Below, one piece after another: positions 35,601 through 38,600 of a DNA stretch of 64,000 nucleotides. The stretch's first letter is position 1; each line of letters opens with the position of its first letter. The DNA lies in assembly GCF_055900595.2 (NCBI RefSeq), contig NZ_CM148325.1; one strand, written 5' to 3'. Made by a program: the position numbers.

Positions 35601-38600
35601 TCGGGGATCTGTTCCTGAAGCGCCTTATACCAGGCGGCAATTTGCGCTTTAAGCGCGGCGGTTAATGCCATGAGAAAACCTGAAATACTGTATAAACAGC
35701 CAATATTGTGGCATTTTTCGGTTTTCAGGGGTAATGGTTTTTCTGTTTCTGGAAAGCGGCTCGCAAACACGCCCTCACACAATATATTTGATTGAAAGTT
35801 CGACGGCACGGTGAGCGCCAGTCTTCAGGGCAGAAAACAGCAAGTGATACCTCATTTCGTGGTTACACTTGCCGCCGTCATCGCTTCGCAGGAACCGGTA
35901 TTGCCCGCCCTGGCCTGAGCCAGGGCCATCAATGCCATTATCCTGTTGGGATCTTTACAGCCATGCGTCTGGCGTCCACTCGGATAAAACTTTAGAAAAA
36001 CGATATTGTGCGTAGCGGACCATATCACGATATAACGAACTTATACGCAGCTGGTTGGCCTCTTCATTAGACAGATTATTGAAATCAAGCAATACCGCTT
36101 TGTATGTATTAAAAGTTTGACTGCTTATCATATTTTCATCTAAAGAGTGAGCTTTAGCCAATAAAGCAAATGCATAACGTTTTAAAATTTTTGACGCATC
36201 AGGAATACCGTTAAAGACATTACTGTGAGAAATATTTGCAAATACGGCGGACAGACAGAAAAATATTTTAGATTTATCACTTTCACTGGCCTCTTTGAGA
36301 TCCAGCATCGTTAATAGATTAGTGTAATGTTTTTCTTTCAAAGTATGCTGTTGCCATTGGTCTGAATCGGTCATCAAAGAGGAAAATAATGATTTAAATT
36401 CTGTCGATTGATTATCCGATTCTGGCACAAAGTCTGTTTTTCGCATTATTGCTGACATAAGTACATCACGAATATAACCTTTCAATCCAAGAGCATTGAG
36501 AATCAATTGGTGTTTCTTATTTTTCTGCGCATATTCCCATCCTTTTGCAAATAAAGGAAATGCACACGTACAAATCGTTTCTGGATCATCTCTGACAACT
36601 TCATGGGTATCCTGCAAAGATGGATAAATAGAGTAATTATTCCAGATGGTCTTTTTCTTAACTTCTGGCTCAAGCATTGAGATTAACGCCTGGTGCGATA
36701 AGCGCATTACTCGCCCAGAGTTATCGGATGATAACAGGATATAACATTTATTATCTTTATCTAACAATCCTTGCAGCTGATTGAAATTCAACTTTATTTC
36801 TTCAGTAACGAATTGTTTTATTTCAGGTAATACCTGATAATTGTGATAAAGGTCAAATGCTAAGTTTTTCTCTTCCACACTTCCGTTTTCAAAAAGCAAA
36901 TCAATAAATTGAATAAATCTATAATTTTCAGAAACCATCAACTCTGGTCTCTTTAAAAAGAGAGCATGGAAAAAGTTAATTATTTCCGTATCGTTACTCA
37001 GATTTTTATTTCTGAAGTAGCACAGATACGTATCCAATGCGCGCATAACAAGTTCATGATCGCTATTAAGTGGGGATTTTAATAGTTTTGCTATTATGGA
37101 CGATGGGAATGCTACCATGTCCCGCAGCGTGAAGAGTTCCATGCCATCAGTTAATTGCGTTAGCAAATCTTTTACTGTTTTTATGTTATCAGTATTATCA
37201 TTGAAAGATTCGTCTGCCAGAGACTCTAGTTTTTCTATCATCCCCCCGATTACAAATATATCTTTTTCGCTCTCCACGTCATGATTAGACATATCATCGA
37301 CGATATCTTTAACTTTACTATCACTTTCATATAGTTTTTCTCTCACAATATTATTAGCGTTTACTGCAGAAGTCGCATCATAATAGGATGGCGGAATAAT
37401 AACAGAGAATTCGTTAGTGAATATAGAATGATATGCAAGATTATCATCATTCAATTTCTCACCAACGTTAAGCGAATTAATATCCCTCAGAATATGCGTC
37501 TCAATCTGACTGTCAAAAAGACTTTTAGAAAAACCACTACCTTCAGTCAGTTCAATTTTCATCCTGAGTATTTTATTTTTGAGGTCAGAAAATGTATTTA
37601 CATAAGGAATAAAAACATCTGATGAATTAGAGTTATTTTTCTTTCCATTAATATTATCTATTCTGACGGTGATCCCTTTCTCATCACGATGAATTGCATT
37701 ATTCATATTTATAGAGATCACATTTTCATGTCTGGATTGCCCGGTTTTAATCGTCATATTGATATCATTTGCGCTGATCTCCGAAATCTCACTGACGAAT
37801 TTTTTAAATGCACTATAGCGCTGGTGGCCAGCATTAAATTTGCCAAATGAAACATAATATGCGAAGTGTTCAAGGAAACCATGTAATTCCAGTAAATTAA
37901 CCGGGTCAGAACCATGCACCATATTTAATAACATCGTCGCATAACCATTGCATTTTGAACAATCCATACACCGCTCCTTTGCACTTGAATGATCTGCGGA
38001 TCATAAGCCTGGCAAAATGGGGAATCTTACAGAAATCGCTCATTTTTAACTTTTCGCACAACAAACTCAGGATAACCTGGTTATGAAATTTTGCTGCTGC
38101 ACGGCTCTAAACAGACTGACTATCAATCTTTCTATCAATAAGCAGAAATGAGCGATTTTTGATAGTTAATTTAAATTATTTCATAGTAATACTTTCATTA
38201 TCTATAGCTTGCACATAATGATTACTTATTATTTTTATCAATTTTAATTTGACGTATTAAAGGAGTTAATATGCGTAATTTGTTTGAGCAGTGGCCATTA
38301 TTTAAACCTAACACACCAGGCAACTCCAACTATTTCCCTGACAACTTATCCATTACAGATATGGTTTTCTGGTTTGACAATAATGCCAAAAAACTGCTAG
38401 ATGTTATTAAAAAAACAAAGAACCATGAACAAAAGCAGATGTTCATTCAGCATTTAACATCAACCTTATATAATAATAAGGTATTAAACAACCCTTATCA
38501 TTTAGAACCGCAAAAAATTTCGAATGAGCAAATAGCCTTACCAATAATTAATATTTTATATGATAATTCTGACGTATTTCATAAAGAAAGTATTTTGTTT

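Follow-up and report, generated by a model that had tools for sequence, protein, structure and literature searches.

Identification of the dinG operator

The 20-bp site at positions 35686-35705 of the analysed DNA (a single stretch of 64,000 nucleotides, referred to here as the window) is confirmed as the already known asymmetric LexA operator of dinG; the observation made in the initial annotation stands and its interpretation is supported. Very probably the site serves as the operator of the dinG(-ybiB) promoter, repressed by LexA and relieved upon DNA damage. Nothing counts against its identity as a LexA operator, and the weak points are confined to the mechanism. The operator, dinG and the following ybiB are listed below in window coordinates:

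35686..35705, minus strand: LexA operator (SOS box) of dinG, TATTGGCTGTTTATACAGTA in the gene orientation (published identity, matrix score, conservation)
35686..35695, minus strand: ATG-proximal near-consensus half-site TTATACAGTA, box positions 11-20, with 13.7 of a possible 15.2 bits
35696..35705, minus strand: distal degenerate half-site TATTGGCTGT, box positions 1-10, TTG replacing CTG, with 0.5 bit
35679..35681, minus strand: Shine-Dalgarno-like AGG, 7 nt before the dinG ATG (sequence)
33521-35671, minus strand: dinG coding sequence, the regulated gene, encoding the 716-residue ATP-dependent DNA helicase DinG (translation and annotation in identical E. coli records)
32531-33493, minus strand: ybiB, following dinG on the same strand

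Read directly, the plus strand of the site is TACTGTATAAACAGCCAATA, with CTG at 35688-35690, ten intervening bases, and CAA instead of CAG at 35701-35703, just as the initial annotation had described its non-canonical box with a single CTG half-site. The gene itself lies on the minus strand, an orientation absent from that description. In the gene orientation the box reads TTG-N10-CAG and fails the strict CTG-N10-CAG pattern of gammaproteobacterial SOS boxes; it still belongs among them because the literature accepts dinG as a documented non-canonical exception. The deviant base is window position 35703 (box position 3). The distal half-site nevertheless keeps the consensus at six of its ten positions, T4 and G5 of the CTG among them. 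The dinG ATG occupies 35671..35669, so that 14 nt separate it from the box and the box edge at 35686 stands 15 bp from the A of the start codon, the distance originally given.

The resemblance to the known atypical dinG box proved to be complete: read on the opposite strand, the sequence equals the published dinG SOS box base for base. In PMC8265657, this sequence is called “experimentally characterized”, with TTG replacing CTG, after Lewis & Mount 1992, and the asymmetric 20-mer as a whole is given as the dinG operator. PMC3009722 gives the same sequence in its Table 4 as the SOS motif preceding dinG and the UV-induced dinG-ybiB transcript, and a UV-induced “ybiB, dinG” transcript appears in Table 7 of the same work. 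The comparison with the known operator, which the initial annotation had proposed, returned the same 20 bp in E. coli K-12, at the same 14 nt from the DinG start codon and with no differences in the core promoter. The operator as such adds nothing new, being of 1992 vintage and present in every list of SOS boxes; its use here is that of a positive control, in which a first-stage reader recognised a non-canonical regulatory site from raw sequence.

Scoring against a LexA weight matrix

A symmetrised LexA weight matrix was built from the 17 other E. coli boxes of PMC3009722 Table 4, with dinG excluded. With this dinG-free matrix the dinG box reaches 13.9 bits and is the top 20-mer of the 64-kb window. 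The score falls inside the leave-one-out range of the accepted boxes, 6.8-27.1 bits (polB 6.8, dinB 13.5, ftsK 16.0). No better register and no second box was found in the dinG promoter with the same matrix, the next best value being -5.3 bits. The matrix check suggested at the outset has thus been carried out, and the combination of a poor score with a better site in the promoter, named there as counter-evidence, was not observed.

The information is divided very unequally, with 13.7 bits in the proximal half versus 0.5 bit in the distal half; by matrix computation, a change of T3 to C would raise the box to 20.3 bits. The strong canonical E. coli boxes (recA, umuDC, sulA, sbmC; consensus TACTG(TA)5CAGTA) are likewise 20-bp promoter sites targeted by a LexA dimer at damage-inducible genes. 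They score 20-28 bits, however, and have a heterology index (HI) of 2-5, compared to 8.6 for dinG, which has the half-site TTG and an early, low-dose induction.

Taken alone, the score is modest. By chance, 0.16-0.29 sites scoring 13.9 bits or more should occur in 64 kb, and about 22 in a genome; among dinucleotide-shuffled sequences, 15% contain one. For the conserved 95-bp dinG promoter the corresponding expectation is about 4e-4. The case for the box rests on its position, its identity with the published operator and its conservation. A chance resemblance to a LexA box, devoid of any regulatory role, would be compatible with those genome-wide expectations, but it has a negligible probability in view of the identity to a characterised operator, the invariance of the site across E. 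coli and the family, and the published damage-inducible and lexA-dependent expression of dinG (PMC8072944, PMC3009722, PMC11228462).

The box also contains an inner inverted repeat, CTGT-TTAT-ACAG (CTG-N6-CAG), whose 4-bp arms are present and invariant. As a real site this inner palindrome is ruled out on score and spacing: the shifted registers give -9.5 bits or lower, and LexA boxes of the E. coli type use N10 spacing. No evidence of another factor at the repeat was found, and the broader proposal that it is the functional unit, for LexA in another register or for another protein, is very improbable.

Several weaker matches in the window were considered and rejected as LexA sites, all of them being at chance level. 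The second-best match, at 33605-33624 (TACTGGATGCATTACCGGTA in the gene orientation, 12.8 bits, CGG replacing CAG), falls near the 3' end of dinG, still inside the gene and 112 nt ahead of the ybiB ATG. K-12 carries the identical sequence, and 0.53 matches of this quality are expected per 64 kb. A CTG-N10-CAG match at 12826-12845 (GCCTGTGTTAGTTTCCAGTA in the gene orientation, 11.9 bits, 0.84 expected per 64 kb) spans the GTG start codon of the ABC-F ATPase gene ybiT (ORF 11249-12841, minus strand). A third, at 49361-49380 (10.5 bits), is inside clsB; for the lesser matches overall, 0.5-1.6 are expected per 64 kb.

Genomic context

The annotation was mapped via NZ_CP098223.1, which is collinear with the window only for 32400-64000. 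The window derives from an E. coli chromosome. A 601-bp query around the box matches several E. coli strains at 100% identity, and 5,421 of the 5,426 complete genomes contain it. Between 35766 and the ATG, box included, K-12 MG1655 and the window have the same sequence. At 35766, 95 bp upstream of the ATG, the homology to K-12 stops, leaving the promoter and the operator unaffected. Beyond this point K-12 carries the divergent ybiA, whereas the window carries an effector gene running in the same direction as dinG:

35955-37967, minus strand: EspX2-like type III effector gene, co-directional with dinG, replacing ybiA of K-12
38271-39956, plus strand: 561-residue hypothetical ORF

This arrangement (window 35766-39956), with both genes between rhlE and dinG, is common to 541 of the 5,426 genomes. 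A terminator scan of 35600-36000 detected no intrinsic terminator between the effector gene and the dinG promoter, and transcriptional read-through from the EspX2-like gene into dinG is conceivable. A perfect 8-bp GC-rich hairpin (GCCCTGGC-CTGA-GCCAGGGC) is located at 35907-35926, some 30 nt past the stop codon of the effector gene; lacking a T-run, it was not called by the scan.

Other features of the window concern its relation to the reference. According to the NZ_CP098223.1 mapping, an island between uvrB and yvcK (58064-62496) encodes a pentapeptide-repeat protein and two hypothetical proteins; it is not known from K-12. The 3' part of uvrB is located at 62655-64000, and since only this part falls within the window, the LexA box of uvrB itself lies outside. 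The reference possesses, between ybiB and hcxB, a filamentous-phage-like island of about 9.9 kb that is absent from the window (below 32400) and encodes Zot, a pIV/GspD-like secretin, a replication endonuclease and an IS110-family transposase. Two IS200/IS605 copies of the reference are absent as well. These differences indicate that the window strain is related to the annotation reference but distinct from it.

Conservation within E. coli and insertions into the box

Of 5,421 E. coli genomes, 5,402 share the sequence of the 60 bp centred on the dinG box, and no perfect full-length match to the box with a repaired CAG, or to its CAC form, was obtained in any genome. Four more genomes gave shortened matches to the 60-mer.

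In two E. coli genomes, an ISL3-family element has been found at the same point inside the operator: ISKox3 in the blood isolate AHB21 (NZ_OZ547226.1) and ISEc53 in TUM13064 (NZ_CP135653.1). The insertion junctions of the two are 95.5% identical (locus L003, 3150-3260). The 8-bp target duplication is CTGTTTAT, corresponding to window 35692-35699 and box positions 7-14. The insertion parts the -10 element and the distal half from the proximal half and dinG.

Comparison across the Enterobacterales

The dinG 5' regions of 80 Enterobacterales were compared by scanning one genome per species and scoring the 250 nt upstream of the gene with the dinG-free matrix. The Escherichia boxes begin with TATTGG, and nearly all other Enterobacteriaceae (loci L006-L056) carry TAGTGGCTGTTTATACAGTA, 12-16 nt from the dinG ATG. 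The boxes of Salmonella and the other Enterobacteriaceae resemble that of E. coli in position, in the other 19 bases and in the extended -10. They differ in having G and not T at position 3; the HI of the Salmonella box is 10.08, as opposed to 8.6 in E. coli.

A different construction is seen in Erwinia and Pantoea. Their dinG box is canonical (CTG-N10-CAG, TACTGTGTAAAAATACAGGC), scores 19-22 bits and overlies the putative -10 itself; its distance to the ATG is 22-27 nt, which puts it about 13 bp farther upstream than in the Enterobacteriaceae. The core promoter of these genera (CTGACG, 17 nt, TGtAAAAAT) is apparently homologous to that of E. coli. In Budvicia, canonical boxes occur further upstream, 46 and 88 nt from the dinG ATG, and in Yersinia, Serratia, Rahnella, Rouxiella, Hafnia and Pectobacterium nothing above about 6 bits was detected in the 250 nt upstream of dinG. 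Judged from these sequences, LexA control of dinG appears to be lineage-specific within the Enterobacterales.

The conservation of each element was determined in 53 Enterobacteriaceae species (50 distinct sequences); as the species are related, the counts are not independent and the values are to be read relative to the flanks. The majority-base fractions are as follows:

Distal half of the dinG box: 0.989
Proximal half of the dinG box: 0.987
-10 hexamer of dinG: 0.962
TGn of the dinG promoter: 0.893
10 nt after the dinG box: 0.817
Spacer of the dinG promoter: 0.573
Far-upstream dinG DNA: 0.512

In these species the box is more strongly conserved than the DNA flanking it. The nearly equal values of its halves indicate equal constraint on the degenerate and the canonical half. 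Box position 3 is G in 51 of the 53 species, T in both Escherichia and never C. A literature search for a published account of lineage-wise placement of the dinG box returned nothing relevant, which is no proof of novelty. This cross-species anatomy is the new part of the analysis, of modest specialist interest.

Putative core promoter of dinG

A consensus scan of 35600-36000 revealed no strong sigma-70 promoter. No mapped dinG transcription start was found in the supplements of published TSS and promoter studies, nor in the Culyba supplements. The promoter elements proposed here, all on the minus strand, are the following:

35705..35713, minus strand: putative extended -10 TGcCACAAT (hexamer CACAAT at 35705-35710, TGn at 35711-35713), from conservation
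35728..35734, minus strand: weak -35-like region, TTACCC at an 18-nt spacer (3/6 matches) or TACCCC at 17 nt
35697..35698, minus strand: predicted transcription start, 7-8 nt beyond the -10 hexamer and equivalent to K-12 833,043-833,044, deduced from the conserved -10

In 76 of the 80 Enterobacterales species, those lacking a box included, a TGnNANAAT motif has its end 28-35 nt ahead of the dinG ATG; by chance, about 0.008 would be expected per locus. In other genera a -35-like hexamer stands in the place of the weak E. coli region, at a 17-nt spacer from this motif: CTGACG outside the Enterobacteriaceae, as in Serratia, Yersinia and Erwinia, and TTGCGA in many Enterobacteriaceae, Enterobacter and Citrobacter among them. 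This comparative pattern suggests that TGcCACAAT is the extended -10 of dinG. The last T of its hexamer is position 1 of the box, which would accordingly span about -7/-8 to +12/+13 of the predicted start.

The dinG promoter could instead consist of ATGCCA (-35), a 16-nt spacer and TACAGT (-10), with the box lying over the spacer and the -10 as in recA. Such a geometry is common among SOS promoters, and the two hexamers have 8/12 matches. This promoter is nevertheless under the scan threshold and would leave a leader of merely about 9-10 nt, starting at the Shine-Dalgarno AGG. The TGnNANAAT motif, with a -35 hexamer 17 nt upstream, is moreover conserved even in species without the box and without TACAGT, and the ATGCCA/TACAGT arrangement is regarded as improbable.

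The proposed overlap with the core promoter raises a further question about the distal half-site, namely whether it is kept only as promoter DNA, with LexA recognition being essentially proximal and the second monomer binding non-specifically. Its 0.5 bit of LexA information is consistent with this, as is its overlap with the edge of the putative -10, the discriminator and +1; in addition, the T closing the -10 and the AG after it are shared with the box-less Serratia and Yersinia. Against it stand the six consensus positions of this half, T4 and G5 included, and the literature (PMC8265657), where the operator is the entire asymmetric 20-mer. Moreover, lone half-sites of such quality occur four times in the window, so a half-site alone would give no specificity. 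Such a purely promoter-borne distal half is unlikely, and it would in any case refine the LexA operator reading rather than exclude it.

Proposed mechanism of regulation and possible origin of the asymmetry

In the proposed mechanism, a LexA dimer would occupy the 20-bp site with one monomer on the near-consensus, ATG-proximal half and the second on the degenerate half, which keeps T1, A2, T4 and G5 and lacks the C of CTG. The box would run from the last base of the putative extended -10 over the discriminator and the predicted start site, and bound LexA should, from this position, exclude RNA polymerase or stop open-complex formation. Upon DNA damage, RecA-stimulated self-cleavage of LexA would free the promoter. 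The identity with the characterised operator, its score and conservation, and the damage-inducible, lexA-dependent expression are established by this analysis or by the papers cited; the precise positions of the -10 and of the start, the way in which polymerase is occluded and the cause of the distal degeneracy are inferred.

Published data on the regulation of dinG concern both E. coli and Salmonella. For the E. coli gene, a heterology index of 8.6, a 3.2-fold induction by AZT and a 1.7-fold lexA dependence have been reported (PMC11228462). The dinG promoter has been classified as “early”, responding at a low UV ED50; the same study (PMC5999292) measured native operators in vitro and moved them into the recA promoter, that of dinG included. 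Numbered in the orientation of that study, the non-canonical base becomes position 18, in agreement with the CAA in place of CAG of the initial annotation. In Salmonella, a single box precedes the dinG ATG by 14 nt; its HI is 10.08, and the gene is induced 10.6-fold by nalidixic acid (PMC8072944). The early de-repression of dinG at low dose would follow from the weakness of the operator: a weak half-site may allow fast release of LexA, in keeping with the “early”, low-ED50 behaviour described in PMC5999292.

A possible reason for the persistent degeneracy lies in the discriminator. On the proposed promoter, box position 3 follows the -10 hexamer by two bases and corresponds to -5 of the non-template strand. 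At this position open complexes are, in relative terms, stabilised by G and destabilised by C, according to PMC4496709, citing Haugen et al. 2006. The box-less Serratia and Yersinia mostly have AG after the dinG -10. The C preferred by LexA coincides with the destabilising base and would therefore be the worst choice for a promoter already poor in its -35. Erwinia and Pantoea, however, carry C at the equivalent -5 position and tolerate it, which makes the discriminator argument a trade-off and not an absolute rule.

With less than even confidence, we suggest that the asymmetry of the dinG operator is no oddity of E. coli but a family-wide, selectively maintained outcome of the overlap between operator and promoter, in which the requirement at -5 locks the half-site as GTG or TTG. 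A single extended -10 would then occur in three states: with no box in Yersinia, Serratia, Hafnia and Pectobacterium, with a canonical box over the -10 in Erwinia and Pantoea, and with an asymmetric, shifted box in the Enterobacteriaceae.

The comparative result offers a testable reason for the preservation of a weak, asymmetric operator, in which LexA and sigma region 1.2 would make opposing demands on a single base. If this is true, the locking of the half-site as GTG (TTG in Escherichia) would hard-wire a weak, early-opening operator. The comparison also shows that, on the same dinG promoter, LexA control can be absent, canonical or asymmetric in sister families.
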